DNA from: a virus
Lineage: Duplodnaviria; Caudoviricetes
IMG/VR virus record: IMGVR_UViG_3300027891_000004
Coordinates: 1 to 64,000 of that record
Length of the DNA: 64,000 nt
Strand: one strand, 5' to 3'
The notes under the pieces were generated by a model. That model was given only the letters and a program-made list of their open reading frames with translations, made no database searches and was not told the DNA's origin. A program made the position numbers and the translations under genes. Of this stretch, positions 1,921 to 62,450 are shown piece after piece; the first letter of the stretch is position 1, and each line of letters starts with the position of its first letter.

Positions 1921-2304
1921 ATGAGTGGTTTTGCGGACATATCGGTGTTTGAAGGTTTGCAACGTAATGCTAACAATGCGATGGGGTTTACGGGCGACGT
2001 TTTTACGAACGTTGACAATTTTAGTTCTGGCGGAGCTTCGGCGTTGACACGCAAATTCAAAGAAAAAGATTTAGAAGCGTCGCAAGAAAAAGATACGGAA
2101 CTTAAAAAGAAATTAGATGCGGAAGCTCTTGCCCTAAAAGAACGACGAGATGGAAGAACAAATCAGGGCATACAAAGAGCAAAGAAAAAAGAGGAAGAAA
2201 AACAAAAAGAGCGAGAGAAGGAAAATTCGTTTGGCAATCTTGTAGAGGACATAATGGTGCCACCTAACAAAAAGCATGATTACTATGGCGAAAAACTATC
2301 CTAA
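1921..2304 (+). CDS. Leader-tagged protein (ADISVFEGLQ family), charged coiled-coil payload
   Basis: MSGFADISVFEGLQRNANNAMG matches the N-termini at 25900, 11322 and 37367; GGAGA RBS; TGATATAAT extended -10 at about 1859-1867. Confidence 0.8.
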   Translation: MSGFADISVFEGLQRNANNAMGFTGDVFTNVDNFSSGGASALTRKFKEKDLEASQEKDTELKKKLDAEALALKERRDGRTNQGIQRAKKKEEEKQKEREKENSFGNLVEDIMVPPNKKHDYYGEKLS

Positions 2305-5239: not shown

Positions 5240-5464
5240 CTATTGCAGGGCACCGACGGCTTGTAGCCGGTTATGGGACTGAAATTTTGTATGCCTTTTC
5301 TTTCGTATTTTTTGGCTCACCACGGCGGCGTCGTACCATGAAAAGCTCAGTTCGGGGTCGGCCGCGTACCGTCCGAGCGTGCGTAGCAGCTCGGTGTTGG
5401 TTTCGTCGGTGTAGCGGAACACGTAGCGTTCATTCCCTTTGGTCAGCGTTACGATGCGTTGCAT
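5240..5464 (-). CDS. Small conserved protein of a planctomycete-associated family
   Basis: L.KG.ERYVF.Y.DE...ELLRTLGRYAADPELSFSWYDAAV.SQKIR; AAGGAGG RBS before ATG 5464. Confidence 0.7.
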   Translation of the reverse strand: MQRIVTLTKGNERYVFRYTDETNTELLRTLGRYAADPELSFSWYDAAVVSQKIRKKRHTKFQSHNRLQAVGALQ

Positions 5465-5537
5465 TATTTTCCTCCTTGAAAAAGTATTGAATCGAAAAAG
5501 TCGGGCCGCGTCTAATATGGGTTCGTAGAGCAGGCGT

Positions 5538-5927
5538 TCAATGGTTAGACCTACCATGTTTTTCTCGGTGCGGATTTGCCGCATGGTATACGTGTCGTTT
5601 TTCCGGGTATTCAAAATCCCATGTACATAGGTCAACGTCTAGCCTTTCCCATCGAAAATGATCGCCGGGATGATCGTCGTTGCAACGGCAATTAAGCGGA
5701 TCGCAACACATACACGGAAACAATGTAACATCTCGTATTTCATTGTCACTCGCGTCTAGAAACCATGCGAACGTATCTCGTGATACGTAATAATCACGGT
5801 TAAAAGTACGCAATTGAAAGCCTTCCGGCGTTATACCGTATATTTTTACGGCCGCCCGCCGTTTTTTCTTCCAACCGCGTATTTTTGGCATACGGCTTTT
5901 TCTTTGTCTTTTTACTTTTTTGCCCAT
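5538..5927 (-). CDS. DUF2442-family putative antitoxin (pair 2)
   Basis: ITPEGFQL....RDYYVS..TFAWF.DAS..EI.DV...HFRWERLDVDL....EYPEK; follows a DUF4160 gene. Confidence 0.8.
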   Translation of the reverse strand: MGKKVKRQRKSRMPKIRGWKKKRRAAVKIYGITPEGFQLRTFNRDYYVSRDTFAWFLDASDNEIRDVTLFPCMCCDPLNCRCNDDHPGDHFRWERLDVDLCTWDFEYPEKRHVYHAANPHREKHGRSNH

Positions 5928-5932
5928 CTACT

Positions 5933-6382
5933 TTATCTCAAATCGTAATCTTTAATTGTGGGGTCTTGCGGGTAACTTATCTTCGCCCATTCAAGCCATT
6001 TGTTGACAAATAATACGCGGTTATCCGATACGACTTCTAAAATTTTTCCCAACTCCTTTTTAGGAACAGACGGCGAAAAATTGGCAAGCGTTACCTGATC
6101 CTTATTTGGTCCTGCCGCTGTCCAAATTTTCACCTCGCCTTCAGGCAACGTAATATGCGTATGCGGAGGTTCAAGCACGCCACCATGTTGTATTTCGTTT
6201 GAACCAATTCCGAAATTCTTACCGCGATATTTAGGAGTCCCCTTGAAAATAGGCGACATATTAAACGCCGCCATCTCCGATACGCCACTGGTCCGTTCGA
6301 GCAGCGTTTGGAAATCGACCCCGGCCCCTTCGGTGCTCCCGGCCGTCCCCGCCATCTCATTGAAGCTATTGTACGTTTGCAT
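5933..6382 (-). CDS. DUF4160-family toxin-like protein with 41-aa N-terminal leader (pair 2)
   Basis: MSP...SNE...EPPHTHI....GEVKIW...EL.KI.EVV..N...F..KW; leader MQTYNSFNEM...SEMAAFN. Confidence 0.75.
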   Translation of the reverse strand: MQTYNSFNEMAGTAGSTEGAGVDFQTLLERTSGVSEMAAFNMSPIFKGTPKYRGKNFGIGSNEIQHGGVLEPPHTHITLPEGEVKIWTAAGPNKDQVTLANFSPSVPKKELGKILEVVSDNRVLFVNKWLEWAKISYPQDPTIKDYDLR

Positions 6383-6386
6383 TATA

Positions 6387-6869
6387 TTATTTATTGATTT
6401 CGTTCCAGTATTCAAAATCTAAAAGCCGGTCGCTTAACCACGGCTCCTTTCCGTTTGCGATTTGTGTATCGTTATACTTTTTTAGACGGTCCAGTTCTTT
6501 TGTAGTAAAGCCTAAAAATGTATTAGGGGCGGGGTTTTCTAGCCATTCAATACCAATGTAAATTTCTAATAAAGGCCAAAGTACCGTATCGTACATCACG
6601 CGAACATGTTTTATTTCTTCTGGCGTTGTTCCTAAAAAATGAGGATACTGATCGAATGACACAAAAAAATCTTTTTTACAATCTTCCCAGTTTTTTTTAA
6701 TAAAAAATTCTTTAGAAAAAATAGTTATCCAAAATCCATTTTGTAAAATGGAAAAAACTTCGGCACTCTGTTCAGTTGTCAGGCTGGGCTGAATCGGGTC
6801 GTTGATAAATTCGACCTCGCTTTTGTTTTCGGTTGCTTTCTTGACTGCTTTTGGGCACATGTTTGTCAT
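6387..6869 (-). CDS. DUF2442-family putative antitoxin (pair 1)
   Basis: AEV..I..NGFWI...FFVSFDQYPHF...T.EEI.HV...VLWP.L.I.IG.E.LENP. Confidence 0.75.
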   Translation of the reverse strand: MTNMCPKAVKKATENKSEVEFINDPIQPSLTTEQSAEVFSILQNGFWITIFSKEFFIKKNWEDCKKDFFVSFDQYPHFLGTTPEEIKHVRVMYDTVLWPLLEIYIGIEWLENPAPNTFLGFTTKELDRLKKYNDTQIANGKEPWLSDRLLDFEYWNEINK

Positions 6870-7281
6870 CGTATTGTCCCTTTTGTTGGGCGAAAGAAGG
6901 TATAGTTGATTTGTATTGCTGAATAAATGTTTCTTGATTGGGGACAATGTGTTTTATAGCCTGGGTTAATTCGTCGTTTCGCATATTTCCATTATCTTTA
7001 ACGGAGATGTTTGGGGTGAGCCAAAATTCTGCGTTTTTATTGCCCGGTGCGTTTACATGGACATGCGGTCGAGGTCCCTCTGTTGGCCAAATAAAAAATT
7101 CGTACCCCTCTACTTTTTTTACCGGAAATAAAGGGGGCGACATATTGAACATCGCCATCTCCGAAAGCAAAGGAGCGGAAGTGCCGCCGGTCCGTTCGAG
7201 CAACGTTTGAAAATCGACCCCGGCTCCTTCGGAGCTTCCGGTCGTCCCCAACATCTCATTGAAGCTATTGTACGTTTGCAT
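6772..7281 (-). CDS. DUF4160-family toxin-like protein with 46-aa N-terminal leader (pair 1)
   Basis: MSP...EGYEFFIW..E.PRPHVHV....NAEFWL.P.I.V..N......EL..A.K.I; leader almost identical to that at 6382. Confidence 0.8.
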   Translation of the reverse strand: MQTYNSFNEMLGTTGSSEGAGVDFQTLLERTGGTSAPLLSEMAMFNMSPPLFPVKKVEGYEFFIWPTEGPRPHVHVNAPGNKNAEFWLTPNISVKDNGNMRNDELTQAIKHIVPNQETFIQQYKSTIPSFAQQKGQYDDKHVPKSSQESNRKQKRGRIYQRPDSAQPDN

Positions 7282-7348
7282 TGTACTAAAATCAAAACGG
7301 CAAAAAGAATACAAACAAAACGGCATTGTAGCATTCCGTACCGAATTG

Positions 7349-9394
7349 TCAATCATTTCGGCGTTTGCAGAACAAGTCGATCATACTCAAAATGTACTTT
7401 TCCGTATCTGTGCCGACGCCTTTCCAACCCTTATGGCCCCGTTTCGAGAGGTAGTTTTTCAACTGTCCAACTGTTTTTATGTGGTGTCCGTACTTTATGT
7501 AGTATGCCCATTTACTTTCGTTTTTGTTTAACAACTTTTCGCCAACGGCGCACCGAAACCATGTCATTTTGCATCGCTTTTGTATCGACTTGCTTTTTTC
7601 GTCTTTTTCTATGAGCCATAAGTGGAAGTCGTCAACGGACATTGTTTCGGGATCGGGCCGTTGTTTTTTTGGTAATTTTGCTTTTGGTGCCAGATCAGGG
7701 GCTATGGATGCTATCAATTCGGGCGTAATTGGTTTCGGTTTGAAATTAGGCGTAGGCTCATTTGGAACCGTAGCGGGTGGCGTCGTTTCCTGGCCCGCCT
7801 TTGCTTCGCATACGGGAGTTACGGGCGTTTCCGGTTCTTTTGGGTAAAAGAACTTTTCCTTTTGTCCGGTCTTTTCATCACGGAGACTGACCGTGATACC
7901 TCGGCAAACGTACGCCATGTATTGCAGAGAATACTTCAGTGCGTCGTAGCCCATCACGCCGTCTGGGAATATTTCTGGATCGGGCGTGATAGTTATTTGA
8001 GTACCGCATTTTTCGGTCTTTTTCAAAACAGACACGGGGCCTACGGGAATTCCGCGTTTGCATATCAGCCGCATAACCTGCCCGTTATTGTGCACATCGA
8101 CGATGCACCGTTTGGCGATCAAATTGAACCGTCGAACGAGGTACAAATCGTTAGGCACCAAATGTTGGCTTTCTTTGAACGTGCCTTTGAAATAATACGG
8201 GTATTTTTCGATAGGCAAACAATGCCTATCGTTTGCAAACGTGACGGTGCCGTCTTTTTTGATCGCTACGATTATTACCGATACGTTTTTCTTTAGTTCG
8301 ATAAAATAGGTGCGGACAATATCGTGGATACGTTTTTCTGATGGCGTCATTTCTGTTTCTTTTGTTAGGGGTTCGGTTATTGTTTGTTCCGGTTCGTCCG
8401 GTTCGTTCGATTCTGACGTAGGCGAGATTGCGTGCAGGACGAGTTTGCACATTTGTTGGGTCCAATCGTAGGCGGGAGCCAACCCGTGAATTCGTTTTAT
8501 CCTTTTCGCTTCATTCACGACGCTGACGAGAACATCATCGTGTGAGGCTTCCCTGTCGCGTCTGGCCAACTCATAAAAAGTTTCCCACCGTTCTAGGCAA
8601 TTTTGTATTTCGTTTTGAAACGGCGTACAATCGTCGTGTGCTACTGTGGGCTTGATGGACGTATCTGGCGTTGTTTCCGCTCGTGTTACGAGGCCTCGCT
8701 CCGTTTCCTGTCGTTCCTCTGTTTCTTCCGTGGTTATTTCTTCTTTTTCGATTTGTTTCATGGCTTCTTTTACCAATGGCTGATTTTTGTTGCATTCTTT
8801 CCGATCTGTGCGCCTTGAGCATTCGATATTTTTTGCAATAATCTCATCGGTCCGGTCTTTGATATTTTCCAATTCTTTTTCGGAAGCGTTTTTTGCACGA
8901 ACACCAAGATCGGCCTCTGCTTTTGCGAGCGCGTTATCGACATGTTCGATAGATAGTGTGCCGTCAATAATCTGTCGTTGGAGGTCAAGAGAAGCATATT
9001 TTCTGATCCTTACTCCACGTTCTATATGCCGCCAACTTACGCCTGATATTTTGGACGCCGACTTGCTCGTTACTTTGTATCCGCCTTTTTTTCGTAACAG
9101 ATAGTAATCGACAGCGAGCAACGTCAACTGCGAAGGCGTCATGTGATGCCTATACCTGTTATTTTGTATTGCGAATCCCAGCGGATCGTCGCCCAGATAA
9201 TCATTGTACGCGGGGTAGGCACCGACTCGTGCGGCCGCGAGGTATCTGTCGTACCCGTCCAATATCCGGCCCTCGTACATAATAATCACGGGGGGACACC
9301 CGGCTTTGATCTCGTTGACGCGAGCTTCAATGTCGGTATCATCCGGCATAGGCAGCATCGCGGCGTATTCGTGTAGTTCTGGTTTTGTTGACAT
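7349..9394 (-). CDS. ParB-like N-terminal domain protein fused to a degenerate GyrB ATPase fragment
   Basis: N-terminal LHEYA..LP.P...I.MYEGRILDG..RY.AA...DPL.F....N..RHHMT.SQ plus HTH; ~7841-8350 reads ...DGTVT..ND...LP.E...YKRG-like CKRG.P...GT.IT..PDPEIF...L..L.Y...GI.V.L.DE.T...FFYP. Confidence 0.75.
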   Translation of the reverse strand: MSTKPELHEYAAMLPMPDDTDIEARVNEIKAGCPPVIIMYEGRILDGYDRYLAAARVGAYPAYNDYLGDDPLGFAIQNNRYRHHMTPSQLTLLAVDYYLLRKKGGYKVTSKSASKISGVSWRHIERGVRIRKYASLDLQRQIIDGTLSIEHVDNALAKAEADLGVRAKNASEKELENIKDRTDEIIAKNIECSRRTDRKECNKNQPLVKEAMKQIEKEEITTEETEERQETERGLVTRAETTPDTSIKPTVAHDDCTPFQNEIQNCLERWETFYELARRDREASHDDVLVSVVNEAKRIKRIHGLAPAYDWTQQMCKLVLHAISPTSESNEPDEPEQTITEPLTKETEMTPSEKRIHDIVRTYFIELKKNVSVIIVAIKKDGTVTFANDRHCLPIEKYPYYFKGTFKESQHLVPNDLYLVRRFNLIAKRCIVDVHNNGQVMRLICKRGIPVGPVSVLKKTEKCGTQITITPDPEIFPDGVMGYDALKYSLQYMAYVCRGITVSLRDEKTGQKEKFFYPKEPETPVTPVCEAKAGQETTPPATVPNEPTPNFKPKPITPELIASIAPDLAPKAKLPKKQRPDPETMSVDDFHLWLIEKDEKSKSIQKRCKMTWFRCAVGEKLLNKNESKWAYYIKYGHHIKTVGQLKNYLSKRGHKGWKGVGTDTEKYILSMIDLFCKRRND

Positions 9395-10896: not shown

Positions 10897-11322
10897 CTAA
10901 TTACGATCCAACCACTCCCCTGTTTCCGATTTTGCTATGATGTTGTAATCTTTTTGTGGCCTATCTCTTTCTTTTTTATAATGGTCCATTAGCGGAATAA
11001 ACTGCCGTTGGTAATCCTGTTCTATTTCTTTTATTCTGCGATTTTTTGCATCCGAAGACGGGGAGGCGTTTAATTTTGTTAGCTCTATCATCCTCGCATA
11101 ATTAAGCGCGGACATCGCCGCTTCCGTTTCATTGATATTCTCAAGCCGATCCCGTACAACGGACGGCGGCACATCTTCGATTTTCACCTCGTTACCCCTT
11201 TCCCAGAAGGTGGCGTTATCCACATGCGCTGCGTTAAACGGTTGCATAACCGACATGCCCATTCGGGCATGGGCACCGTTTTGTAGATTTTCAAACATTC
11301 CAATATCAGCGAGCTTTTCCAT
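10897..11322 (-). CDS. Leader-tagged protein (ADIGMFENLQ variant), helical payload
   Basis: MEKLADIGMFENLQNGAHARMGMSVMQPFN aligns with MQKLADISVFEGLQRGAHAQMNIPSEMSVFN (25900). Confidence 0.8.
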   Translation of the reverse strand: MEKLADIGMFENLQNGAHARMGMSVMQPFNAAHVDNATFWERGNEVKIEDVPPSVVRDRLENINETEAAMSALNYARMIELTKLNASPSSDAKNRRIKEIEQDYQRQFIPLMDHYKKERDRPQKDYNIIAKSETGEWLDRN

Positions 11323-11349
11323 TGTGTTTTAATTGAAAGAACAATTTTT

Positions 11350-11403
11350 GTAGTATCCTACGTAGCATCCTACAAAAACGTAGCACCCTACGTAGCATCC
11401 TAC
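11350..11403. repeat. Four 12-bp dyad units GTAGyAyCCTAC, operator or arm-site-like
   Basis: Units at 11350, 11362, 11380 and 11392. Confidence 0.8.
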
Positions 11404-25899: not shown

Positions 25900-26451
25900 A
25901 TGCAGAAATTAGCCGACATTAGTGTTTTCGAGGGGCTTCAACGCGGCGCGCACGCACAAATGAACATTCCAAGCGAAATGTCTGTTTTTAACGATTACAG
26001 CGAAGCGGAAAAACAAGAGCGCACCGCAAGAATAGAGCAAGAGATAGAAGATATAAAACGGGAAACAAATAAATTATACTATGATGCTCGAAATGCGAGG
26101 CAACAAATGGAAGCCGAAAAGAAAGCGGCATTCTCCGAATTGGGCGCGGTTGCGCAACGGGCTGGATGGGACGAGAACCAAAAGCAGGATTATTGGCGAA
26201 AATACGATGAAATACTGTTACAAGAACACGAGGAAAAATACTTTTGGGCTAACAAAGAAATGAAAGATAGAGCAGATGCGCTTAGAGGCCGCGTAAAAGA
26301 GATACGAGGAAACGACCCTGATGGCCGTTTTGCGATTCCTTGCTTTGCTATTGAGGACAAACTAGACAAATTCGAGATGCAAATAAAATCGACAATGAGC
26401 AAGAAACCAGTAGAAAGAAAGACGCTTAGTAATATGTCGGCGTTTCAATAG
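25900..26451 (+). CDS. Leader-tagged protein, coiled-coil payload
   Basis: MQKLADISVFEGLQRGAHAQMNIPSEMSVFN; the C-terminus also ends SNMSAFQ. Confidence 0.85.
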   Translation: MQKLADISVFEGLQRGAHAQMNIPSEMSVFNDYSEAEKQERTARIEQEIEDIKRETNKLYYDARNARQQMEAEKKAAFSELGAVAQRAGWDENQKQDYWRKYDEILLQEHEEKYFWANKEMKDRADALRGRVKEIRGNDPDGRFAIPCFAIEDKLDKFEMQIKSTMSKKPVERKTLSNMSAFQ

Positions 26452-26758
26452 CCCCTTTTGCAATGCCCGTGCCGCTAAGCAGCCCGTCAAAATAGGCCAC
26501 GTAGTGCATCGAAAAGAATAAAAAATTTAAGTCACTTTTGTGACTTGCCTGATTATGTTCCCAATTGTTGTATCGAGATATTGTATCTTTCCAAAAAACG
26601 GTGCGTTCGTTATGGCTTTTCAAATGACCAACGTCGCGTTGTTCGTATTTCAAGCCTTCTTGCAATTTTCGGCGCCATATCTCCCTTTGCTCTGCGCGGG
26701 TATGGCAATTGTAGACCGCCTTCGTTTTCAAAGCGGTTTCAATAAAATCGGTAGTCAT
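26426..26758 (-). CDS. Hypothetical protein
   Basis: ATG 26758 with AGGAAGG RBS. Confidence 0.6.
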   Translation of the reverse strand: MTTDFIETALKTKAVYNCHTRAEQREIWRRKLQEGLKYEQRDVGHLKSHNERTVFWKDTISRYNNWEHNQASHKSDLNFLFFSMHYVAYFDGLLSGTGIAKGAIETPTYY

Positions 26759-26779
26759 TTGACAGCCTTCCTGTAAAAT

Positions 26780-26795
26780 CCCGCCACGTGGCGGG
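26780..26795. repeat. Dispersed palindrome copy 6
   Basis: CCCGCCACGTGGCGGG, 13 nt past the rpsF stop, followed by ATTTT on the minus strand. Confidence 0.95.
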
Positions 26796-26808
26796 ATCGT
26801 GTGCGGCA

Positions 26809-27237
26809 TCAATCGGATTCCGTATCTCTGTTTTTATATTTCTCTTCCAATTCTTTCATAAGCGGGTCGTTATCCAGGTCGATTTTCTCATCGTCCTCTT
26901 GCGGAGTCGGCTTGTGTTTTTTCGCATGATCGACAAGCGTATCGACCAATTTTGGATCTATTACGATAAACAAGTACCGGAGCACGCACGCCTCGTTTTG
27001 GAACAGGTCCGATACCGCCTTGATCCGTTCGGGATCGCACCGAAAATAGGAAAGCCAGTAAATAGCTCGCAAATGGCCGGGAACTCCGTAATTCAAAGTA
27101 CGTTCGTTCCATAGCGAGCTGTGAAGCATCTCGCCGCCCTCCCGCCCGACCATTTCGGCAAGACGTCCCGAAACGGCGTCCGGATTCTCGTCGTACATCG
27201 ATGCGTCGAGCACAAATAGCCCTTCATAAACGTTCAT
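26809..27237 (-). CDS. rpsF: 30S ribosomal protein bS6, planctomycete type, phage-encoded
   Basis: NVYEGLF.LD...Y..NP..VSG...EM....GGEML.S.LW.ER.L.Y...G.....YWL.YF.........LRYLF...DP.LVD.LV.HA plus acidic tail. Confidence 0.85.
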   Translation of the reverse strand: MNVYEGLFVLDASMYDENPDAVSGRLAEMVGREGGEMLHSSLWNERTLNYGVPGHLRAIYWLSYFRCDPERIKAVSDLFQNEACVLRYLFIVIDPKLVDTLVDHAKKHKPTPQEDDEKIDLDNDPLMKELEEKYKNRDTESD

Positions 27238-37366: not shown

Positions 37367-37660
37367 ATGCAAAAGTTAGCAGATATCTTCACGTTTTCGA
37401 GGGCCTACCCCGCCACGTGGCGGGGTTTCAACGTTTGCCGCCGCAACAGCCGACCAAGTGAGTGTAGACGGGCGACGAAACGGGCGGCCCGTTGTACGTC
37501 GAGTTGGCCACCGGCATTTTATCATAAACAGGCGGACTATGTTGCATCTGGGTATGGAAAAATTCCTTCTTCCGGAAGCTACCGCAGGTACGGCATTGTG
37601 CTATGTCAAGCCCAAGATTACATTTGGCGGTCTCCGCCATTCGGAAGTGTAGGCACGGTC
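37367..37660 (+). pseudogene. Degraded leader-family gene (frameshift plus palindrome insertion); 3' end approximate
   Basis: MQKLADI, then a frameshift, then GTT TTC GAG GGC CT (VFEGL), a 21-nt palindrome, and CAA CGT (QR); early stop. Confidence 0.7.
37407..37426. repeat. Dispersed palindrome copy 7
   Basis: ACCCCGCCACGTGGCGGGGT. Confidence 0.95.
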
Positions 37661-61937: not shown

Positions 61938-62450
61938 TTAGTGATAATCCGTAATTTCCTGTATTTCAATTTCTGTAACTTTCGACCAATCTAAATTACC
62001 GTTTGCATCTACGGGAATTGGATCATGCTTTGGCACAAAGATTAAACGCCACCCACCATGCAAAGCGCCAGCAAGTTGCCCTGCCCTATCGTCTTTTAAG
62101 CTGTGAAAATTACCTTTATTGTCACGAACTCCCCGCAATTCTTTACGCCCCTTCAATTCTTCAAGTGTTATAGCTCTTTCAAGTCTCTTTAATTGCTTTT
62201 CAAGCACAATATGATTTTTTGGATTTCCACCATCGCCTCCAAATTCGATATTTCCGGGCGTACATTCAGCTTCTACCTGAGGATTAGCGTAGGAAATGCC
62301 AACCATATTATCAACGGCGTCATCATTCCAAACCTTGCCGTCTGCCGACTGACATTCTTTTATGGTTTGGAACGACGCATTGCCGCCGATGCAACGACAA
62401 TCGCCAGAACCAGGCAGTTCGCTAAAACTGTTTACAACATTCATTTTCAT
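61938..62450 (-). CDS. HigB-like (RelE superfamily) toxin with N-terminal leader
   Basis: L..L..A.TLEEL...GNFHSLK.DR.GQ.A..L..GWRLIF.P.HDP.P....G.LDW..VT.I.I.EI.DYH; leader NSFSELPG...FQTIKE; AAGGAG RBS. Confidence 0.85.
   Translation of the reverse strand: MKMNVVNSFSELPGSGDCRCIGGNASFQTIKECQSADGKVWNDDAVDNMVGISYANPQVEAECTPGNIEFGGDGGNPKNHIVLEKQLKRLERAITLEELKGRKELRGVRDNKGNFHSLKDDRAGQLAGALHGGWRLIFVPKHDPIPVDANGNLDWSKVTEIEIQEITDYH

Follow-up and report, generated by a model that had tools for sequence, protein, structure and literature searches.

Why should two neighbouring toxin-family genes of a phage open with nearly the same N-terminal peptide when the domains behind it have drifted far apart? 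The question is raised by the window analysed here, the first 64 kb of a 167,820-bp IMG/VR virus record (IMGVR_UViG_3300027891_000004; CheckV completeness 94%) from an uncultured phage, in which two minus-strand open reading frames (ORFs), 7281..6772 (169 aa, P0001, hereafter gene A) and 6382..5933 (149 aa, P0002, gene B), both begin with MQTYNSFNEM...GAGVDFQTLLERT...SEMA[MA]FN and then continue as MSP. Judged from sequence, this leader is one variant of a modular family carried by ~30 unrelated small proteins of this phage, and we put at about 50% the probability that it acts as a capsid-targeting propeptide, cut after F-N/Q and analogous to the capsid-targeting sequence (CTS) of phage T4. 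The two genes and their partners are laid out as follows, with positions beyond 64,000 in the text referring to the whole record.

7144..7281, minus strand: leader of gene A, codons 1-46, MQTYNSFNEM...SEMAMFN, with the short F-[NQ] motifs SFN, DFQ and MFN.
6772..7143, minus strand: payload A, from Met47 (MSP...), with DUF4160 at nt 6913-7107 and a basic tail that is kept in the ortholog P0220.
6387..6869, minus strand: DUF2442-like partner of gene A (P0003), leaderless, start codon uncertain, overlapping the 3' end of gene A in another frame.
6260..6382, minus strand: leader of gene B, codons 1-41, MQTYNSFNEM...SEMAAFN.
5933..6259, minus strand: payload B, from Met42 (MSP...), with DUF4160 at nt 5996-6172.
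5538..5927, minus strand: probable second DUF2442-like partner (P0004), leaderless, beginning 6 nt after gene B.

Comparison of the two genes revealed a sharp change in conservation at the end of the leader, whose fuller common pattern runs from MQTYNSFNEM.GT.GS.EGAGVDFQTLLERT through to SEMA[MA]FN. The DNA at 7189-7282 and 6290-6383 was 91.5% identical over 94 nt (blastn E 1.9e-30 in the 168-kb genome), which bears out the near-identity described in a first-pass annotation of this DNA, although we counted 8 mismatches and not the "about ten" differing positions given there; a second block of 29 nt (90% identity) follows, with a 15-nt in-frame indel between both blocks, and the similarity as a whole spans ~8 nt 5' of the ATG to just past ATGTCGCC. 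In a codon alignment, 38 of 44 leader residues were identical (88% nt identity), 6 of the identical residues being written with different codons, whereas the payloads shared only 24 of 86 residues (28%) and 45% nt identity, such that both the shared leader and the far greater divergence of the payloads stand as first described. Each payload matched Pfam DUF4160 above the gathering cut-off of 23 bits (P0001, aa 59-123, E 5.6e-9, 36.5 bits; P0002, aa 71-129, E 1e-5, 26.1 bits), with the leader ending in both genes at FN directly before MSP and the Pfam profile starting 12 residues past that junction Met; a Foldseek search of the DUF4160 model against PDB returned nothing significant. On these sequence grounds genes A and B are DUF4160 (DhiT-type toxin-family) proteins, with the leader fused in frame to what reads as their ancestral start Met.

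The two genes had been presented as a self-contained pair, and here the picture changed, as they proved to be two members of the ~30-gene leader family. A sweep of the genome by tblastn and regular expression spotted many ORFs with related N-terminal peptides. One kind, the type-A leader (M.KLADIS.FE.LQ..A...MG..S.MSVFN), was found by a six-frame hidden Markov model (HMM) search of the whole genome in 20 ORFs at E <1e-6, 19 of them intact at E <1e-12 and one frameshifted (116912), with the match beginning at the initiator ATG or <=2-3 residues away in each, such that the start ATG falls on profile position 1 or 4; two further degenerate remnants lie at 37367 and 99593. Some 10 additional leader genes are of the NSFNEL...SFQ kind (types B/B'/C/D), among which types B, B' and D form a single alignable family, M..NSF[NS]EL...[SD]FQT. 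Members of this second type include MRVV.SFNELL (81291, 72462, 73199), MKMNVVNSFSEL / MMLNDFSQL (62450, 138855) and the leader of genes A and B, whose GAGVDFQT aligns with the NMSAFQ and NASFQT of other second-type leaders and which carries an extra LLERT...SEMxxFN segment resembling the type-A end. The general build of the family is thus a first amphipathic motif (S-F-N-E-L or I-S-x-F-E-x-L) plus one or two downstream [S/A/G]-x-F-[N/Q] motifs, and intermediate leaders such as MTSIPLFESLQNEMHQRMGCSHLGCFN occur in a relative. No Pfam, NCBIfam or PHROGs model exists for the leader. Further members within the window are these.

1921..2304, plus strand: type-A leader gene (MSGFADISVFEGLQ...), payload without assigned family, leader HMM E 2.6e-15.
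10897..11322, minus strand: type-A leader gene (MEKLADIGMFENLQ...MQPFN), payload without assigned family, leader HMM E 9e-18.
25900..26451, plus strand: type-A leader gene (MQKLADISVFEGLQ...SEMSVFN) with C-terminus ...NMSAFQ and stop, leader HMM E 3e-21, one of four paralogous cassettes.
37367..37400, plus strand: degenerate type-A remnant (MQKLADIFTF...), leader HMM E 0.11 over the first 10 positions only.
61938..62450, minus strand: phrog_3066 "toxin of TA system" payload (PHROG match) behind an NSFSEL...ASFQ-type leader.

Several features of individual family members, and of two further loci with similar motifs, are recorded here in their own right. Decayed copies point to turnover of the family: the gene at 116912-117324 (plus strand) is frameshifted after MDQFADISRFENLQ and resumes as MAAFN... 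in another frame, the window copy at 37367 (plus strand) degenerates after 10 residues, and the copy at 99593 (minus strand) is a 35-aa fragment. Four paralogous two-gene cassettes (25900-26812 in the window; 87522-88387, 97881-98754 and 126904-127783 elsewhere in the genome) each combine a type-A leader protein of ~180 aa with a convergent small gene; the leader genes each stand behind TTTATG[AG]TATAATG, three of the four leader proteins end in ...MSAFQ or ...AMAAFQ before the stop, and the pair also occurs in a metagenome contig (L107). Just upstream of the leader gene at 11322, at ~11330-11400 of the window (minus strand), lie four imperfect tandem copies of a ~13-nt motif, GGATGCTACGTAG, which resembles the GG[ACT]AT[AG]CTAC extended -10-like motif preceding several other genes. 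The protein encoded at 70251-70925 (minus strand), conserved in contig L087, where it adjoins a 2083-aa tape-measure-like gene, has a transmembrane segment at its N-terminus and, behind it, an internal motif that is leader-like, VADLSVFE...AAFN; were this motif a cleavage site, the C-terminal domain would leave the membrane. Finally, the paralogs at 7349-9394 of the window and 162099-163328 of the genome (both minus strand) have N-termini that look ParB-like by eye, with no ParB family match obtained; in the former the N-terminus matches phrog_21315 (unknown function) and residues 424-513 match a topoisomerase II large-subunit PHROG, and the frame just after the latter ends in ...SAMAAFQ and stop.

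To be a signal of any kind at the protein level the leader has to be translated, and its codon usage indicates that it is. Entropy at the three codon positions of the ADISxFExL core across the 19 type-A paralogs was 0.71, 0.44 and 1.32, and the Ala, Asp, Phe, Glu and Leu of this core each use all of their synonymous codons, a variation that argues for selection on the peptide and not on DNA or RNA. The leader is also modular. An AlphaFold2 model of P0001, built from a shallow alignment, gave a predicted local distance difference test score (pLDDT) of <50 at aa 1-49 and of 76-92 at aa 55-130 (DUF4160), with short helices at the three leader motifs, and the leader is accordingly predicted to be intrinsically disordered. 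A word-indexed homolog search with the payload only returned a single protein, P0220, which is an ortholog of payload A (58% identity including the basic tail) with a different leader, MSRTFNSYAEL...TTDN directly before MTPP. Across 8 DUF4160 cargos with 4 leader kinds, the Asn before the domain was invariant and the next Met was kept in 7. The earlier proposal that the leader was grafted onto complete DUF4160 domains is supported by the Pfam start past the junction, by the disorder of the leader in the model, and by the ortholog with another leader.

Evaluating the family beyond this genome, we carried out the leader-profile search that the first-pass annotation had suggested, which added to the many unrelated payloads of this phage 323 clusters at E <=1e-3 among 1.84 billion representative proteins (36-position type-A profile), with the leader at residue 1 in nearly all and protein lengths of 49-265 aa. 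Payload and motif statistics come from the best 150 of these 323 clusters (148 for the second motif). Pfam domains were almost absent among these 150, with one DUF4160 and one sigma-70 factor, the latter being complete with regions 2 and 4. The second motif followed a consistent pattern across the 148 leaders (median length 30 residues), with S/A/G at P4 in 131, V at P3 in 118, F at P2, N at P1 in 131, and A, D, S, G, E or T at P1' in 114. Some metagenomic proteins (P0008, P0056, P0070) carry tandem leaders, M.KLADIS.FE...SVFN and then.PKLADIS.FE...

The leader is confined to one phage clade. It was found in 47 contigs of JGI metagenomes that are syntenic with this phage, from sample identifiers that we take to be mostly those of termite-gut samples. 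A pattern scan of IMG/VR found no leader apart from the present record; the same pattern matches the window. Among 185,579 species genomes, genuine leaders were present only in 3 contigs binned into Planctomycetaceae metagenome-assembled genomes, one of which (171.6 kb) carries phage head genes, and all remaining pattern matches were internal chance matches. This binning hints weakly at a planctomycete host. That the leader is phage-specific speaks against a signal for secretion or proteolysis by the host and for a phage-encoded recognition partner. We also considered and rejected a Sec/Tat signal or a double-glycine (bacteriocin/RiPP, that is, ribosomally synthesized and post-translationally modified peptide) leader, as the leaders are acidic and amphipathic, have neither a hydrophobic core nor a GG end, and none occurs in bacterial chromosomes.

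We also asked which proteins carry the leader, starting from the toxin-family genes. DhiTA of Dickeya dadantii is an experimentally validated DUF4160/DUF2442 toxin-antitoxin pair (PMC8198452), which confirms the first-pass assignment of this domain pair to the toxin-antitoxin kind, and DUF4160 is also an effector domain of Menshen NsnC proteins (PMC12065111). The phage genes resemble DhiTA in having what is probably the same domain pair in toxin-first order (PMC8198452, PMC12065111) and differ in that canonical DhiT-type proteins are single-domain, going by Pfam profile coordinates and PMC12065111, whereas every DUF4160 of this phage is leader-tagged. All 4 copies in the genome (7281, 6382, 79386, 138855) carry leaders, of 3 types, although the copy at 138855 is weak (16.3 bits against a cut-off of 23; no match at E <=0.01 in another Pfam search) and the copy at 79386, in a further difference from DhiTA, has no DUF2442 neighbour. 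As first noted, the DUF2442 partners are leaderless, which held in the sequences and in the Pfam and leader searches, and the genome-wide Pfam search placed DUF2442-type genes at 6869 and 138386, both untagged. These partner assignments are weak or close to threshold: P0003 scored 22.6 bits in one search and 24 bits in another (cut-off 23.9), the DUF2442-like gene downstream of 138855 scored a weak 15 bits, and P0004, with no Pfam match, was linked by BLASTP to P0003 (E 2e-4) and to the DUF2442-like gene at 138 kb (E 1e-6), both being weak, single-pair E-values. A related ENA contig has the gene order DUF4160, DUF2442, then a leader-tagged DUF4160-like gene. Both phrog_3066 "toxin of TA system" genes (62450, 108489) likewise have N-terminal extensions that are leaders; a HigB/RelE identity for these two was rejected, as they had no Pfam match and only the phrog_3066 one.

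Leader genes are also clustered beside the head protease. The gene at 85184-86878 (564 aa) matches DUF2213/Pa193_gp24 and phrog_530 "head maturation protease" over residues 48-200. A model of its residues 1-230, built from 57 homologs, had 123 residues with pLDDT >90; its first match was T4 gp21 (5JBL; probability 1.0, E 3e-4), with herpesvirus assemblins ranking next. Across the 57 homologs S133 and D162 never vary, and H71 and H163 hardly do. A sequence search of the protease against PDB found none. Residues 286-326 of the homolog Pa193 gp24 bind the capsid interior and are presumed to be scaffold (PMC11456595), and since this homolog is scaffold-like and the phage protein has a gp21-fold protease domain, we read the gene as a protease-scaffold fusion. 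Directly downstream on the same strand lie 11 leader genes (85060, 84027, 83605, 82887, 82069, 81641, 81291, 80768, 80199, 79386, 78482) in an array spanning 85060 to 78120 and ending at a phrog_302 virion structural protein. The first of them (85060) encodes a leader-tagged, acidic, scaffold-like protein of 264 aa, and in relatives with 52-77% identical proteases the leader genes are clustered just before or after the protease gene. The major capsid protein (MCP) is encoded at 91873-93024 (phrog_771/DUF6260). The leader HMM had no match in 80 IMG/VR loci around MCP homologs, and an all-against-all search of N-termini in 80 MCP-homolog loci returned only ordinary paralogs.

Other genes of the genome deserve brief mention. 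The large terminase (148237-151377, minus strand) is 1046 aa long with ~500 extra N-terminal residues. An HNH endonuclease and a PAPS-reductase-like gene (89004-91729, minus strand), which look like mobile or auxiliary insertions, separate the MCP and protease genes. Amid the structural and leader region lies an RtcB RNA ligase (73256-74365, minus strand; phrog_1075, E 1e-128), which may counter host tRNA or anticodon nucleases.

What would such a leader do? The pathway that we infer would run through binding, cleavage, packaging, injection and toxicity. The leader would dock its cargo on the core of the assembling procapsid or on the protease-scaffold, and the maturation protease, of gp21/assemblin fold, would cut after F-N or F-Q (P1 Asn or Gln). 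Putative sites are S-x-F-E in the first motif and S/A-x-F-N/Q in the later ones, with P1 being Glu, Asn or Gln; with two or three such sites, each leader would be broken up into small peptides. The freed cargo would stay in the head and be ejected into the next host, while the untagged DUF2442 partners would stay in the producing cell as antidotes. Counted for this propeptide reading, next to the size of the family, its selection at the peptide level and its modularity, are that leaders are phage-specific, that they are arrayed by the head protease, that they are conserved from P4 to P1' in the manner of a cleavage site, and that toxin-family genes are tagged while DUF2442 partners are not.

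By analogy, the leader looks functionally like the head-targeting propeptides of phages of the T4, P1 and phiKZ types, from which it differs by its length, modular motifs, Asn/Gln end, ~30-gene scale and toxin-antitoxin toxin cargo. The T4 CTS, 10 residues long, directs the divergent internal proteins that bear it to the core and is a substrate of gp21 (PMC9026906); its sequence, MKTYQEFIAE, is attested (PMC8442874). The likeness of MQTYNSFNE to this peptide, raised in the first-pass annotation, does amount to 4 of 10 identities (M1, T3, Y4, F7), but the peptides are too short for this to be statistically meaningful, which makes the leader an analog at best and not a homolog. Shared with the T4 system (IPI/II/III, Alt; gp21) are a short N-terminal propeptide on unrelated, fast-evolving cargo, an encoded gp21-fold protease, the Y4 and F7 that match T4 targeting determinants (hydrophobic/aromatic), and a putative P1 N/Q (E in the first motif) chemically near the P1 Glu of T4. 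It departs from T4 in being 25-46 residues long and not 10, in having two or three motifs and an Asn/Gln end, in showing no significant sequence similarity, and in tagging ~30 genes per genome and not a handful; moreover protease and scaffold form one protein (DUF2213), the payloads are mostly acidic, and the system is known here from its genes. The Dar system of P1 offers a parallel, as the N-terminal 30 residues of DarB suffice for capsid loading and delivery to the next host (PMC9024508); this signal sits on one protein, however, with no multi-gene leader family and no conserved cleavage-like motif. In giant phages of the phiKZ/SPN3US type, the propeptides of ejection and inner-body proteins are described as being cut at A/S/G-x-E by a gp21-like protease (PMC5694885, PMC7411985, PMC10052503). 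These phages resemble the system proposed here in having many head-internal proteins with N-terminal propeptides and a short cut motif, whereas their propeptides, as far as the processing described there goes, are not one conserved leader, the motif is another, and so is the phage lineage. Temperate phages also load toxin domains into the capsid as polymorphic toxins fused to MuF. The idea of joining a toxin to a head-targeting module is the same, with a whole N-terminal MuF head protein there and a short, cleavable-looking leader here.

A number of observations weigh against the propeptide reading and are among the reasons for holding it at about 0.5. The MCP has no xF[NQ]-type leader motif, and a search for conserved xF[NQ] sites in the C-terminal domains of 62 protease homologs found none; the earlier expectation that the motif would recur in capsid and scaffold proteins held for the scaffold-like gene by the protease and failed for the MCP. 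Phages with 35-47% identical MCPs have no leader <=10 kb from the MCP gene, so that phages of this capsid lineage do not carry the leader as a rule. Roughly half of the leader genes are found away from the structural module, and several have extended -10 sigma-70-like promoters in front of them, which are compatible with early expression; the promoter motifs themselves are only generic extended -10 sites and do not discriminate. The payloads are mostly acidic (median pI 5.7), unlike the basic internal proteins of T4. The Met after the junction, kept in 7 of the 8 DUF4160 cargos, could mean that internal initiation still matters. In addition, a tblastn search with a leader against 50,697 cultured-phage records found none, and an hhalign comparison of type B/D with type A leaders recovered the expected register (F-E-L ... 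S-x-F-N/Q) at a probability of only 3%, so that the two share an architecture and not a demonstrable homology. A complex prediction of protease residues 1-230 with a type-A leader scored 0.00, which gives no verdict and was counted neither way.

Some of these same observations would suit a leader that docks on another shared phage-encoded partner (a chaperone, a degradation adaptor, or an export or sorting device), with F-N as a binding anchor and not a scissile bond. The outlying leader genes behind sigma-70-like promoters, the capsid protein without the motif and the metagenomic sigma-70 cargo fit it, as do the several proteins ending in ...MSAFQ or ...AMAAFQ, as if in a terminal binding peptide. 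We nevertheless consider docking without cleavage unlikely, as leader genes are packed most densely between the head protease and a virion structural gene both here and in relatives, the scaffold-like gene beside the protease is itself tagged, the P4-P1' conservation with its small or acidic P1' resembles a protease site, and no candidate for an alternative partner was identified. Another reading, already offered in the first-pass annotation, is a pro-toxin leader: with it in place the payload would be inactive or could not bind its target, and a phage protease would take it off in the infected cell. Such a leader would need no packaging and would serve superinfection exclusion or a timed host shut-off. 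It would explain why every recognisable toxin-family gene (4 DUF4160 and 2 phrog_3066) is tagged and why the junction falls exactly at the native domain start; we judge it rather improbable, given that most payloads are not recognisable toxins (Pfam matches in very few of the best 150 clusters), that coiled-coil, scaffold-like proteins share the same leader, that the leader is modelled as disordered and not packed on the domain (from a shallow alignment), and that two of the toxins are already paired with antitoxin-like partners.

The junction itself bears on whether the functional DUF4160 proteins are made mainly from Met47 and Met42, with the upstream leader frame being regulatory or secondary and inherited by recombination between paralogs. 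Retention of the Asn-Met junction (AAT/AAC ATG) in 7 of 8 DUF4160 cargos at 22-50% identity would be expected under such a two-isoform arrangement, and as the genes of this phage start in A-rich contexts with no Shine-Dalgarno sequence, translation could begin at an internal AAT-ATG. Set against this, the leader is under purifying selection at the peptide level, the indel between genes A and B is in frame, and Met does not follow F-N in the wider family, which together leave this arrangement with a slim chance. The notion that the repeat is non-coding, as an element of DNA or RNA, or similar by chance has the high nucleotide identity of both copies in its favour and nothing else, and it is effectively refuted by the blastn E-value, by the absence of any Rfam match in a search of 5400-7600, by third-position variation and synonymous codons, and by the 323 clusters with the leader at residue 1.

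Returning to the propeptide reading, its widest form remains tentative and falls short of even odds: across the clade, a ~30-residue F-N leader would act as a sorting code comparable to a signal peptide, by which ~30 proteins per genome would be loaded into the capsid, freed at Asn/Gln by a gp21-fold protease-scaffold, and injected. We regard it as equally tentative that this cargo would include the toxins of toxin-antitoxin systems and, in relatives, a sigma factor, with the antitoxins staying behind, so that the whole would work as an "effector secretion system" of the phage. If true, the leader sequence alone would define the injected-protein repertoire of an uncultured clade of ~140-190 kb phages, which would open hundreds of functionally uncharacterised families to a search for effectors of host takeover and anti-defence. 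A further consequence would be that the toxins of toxin-antitoxin systems lend themselves to reuse as weapons delivered by virions, and a compact, portable tag would become available for loading foreign proteins into capsids. Were packaging the wrong explanation, strong selection on a peptide of 30 residues in about one-eighth of the genes of a phage would still point to an undescribed step of protein sorting or processing.

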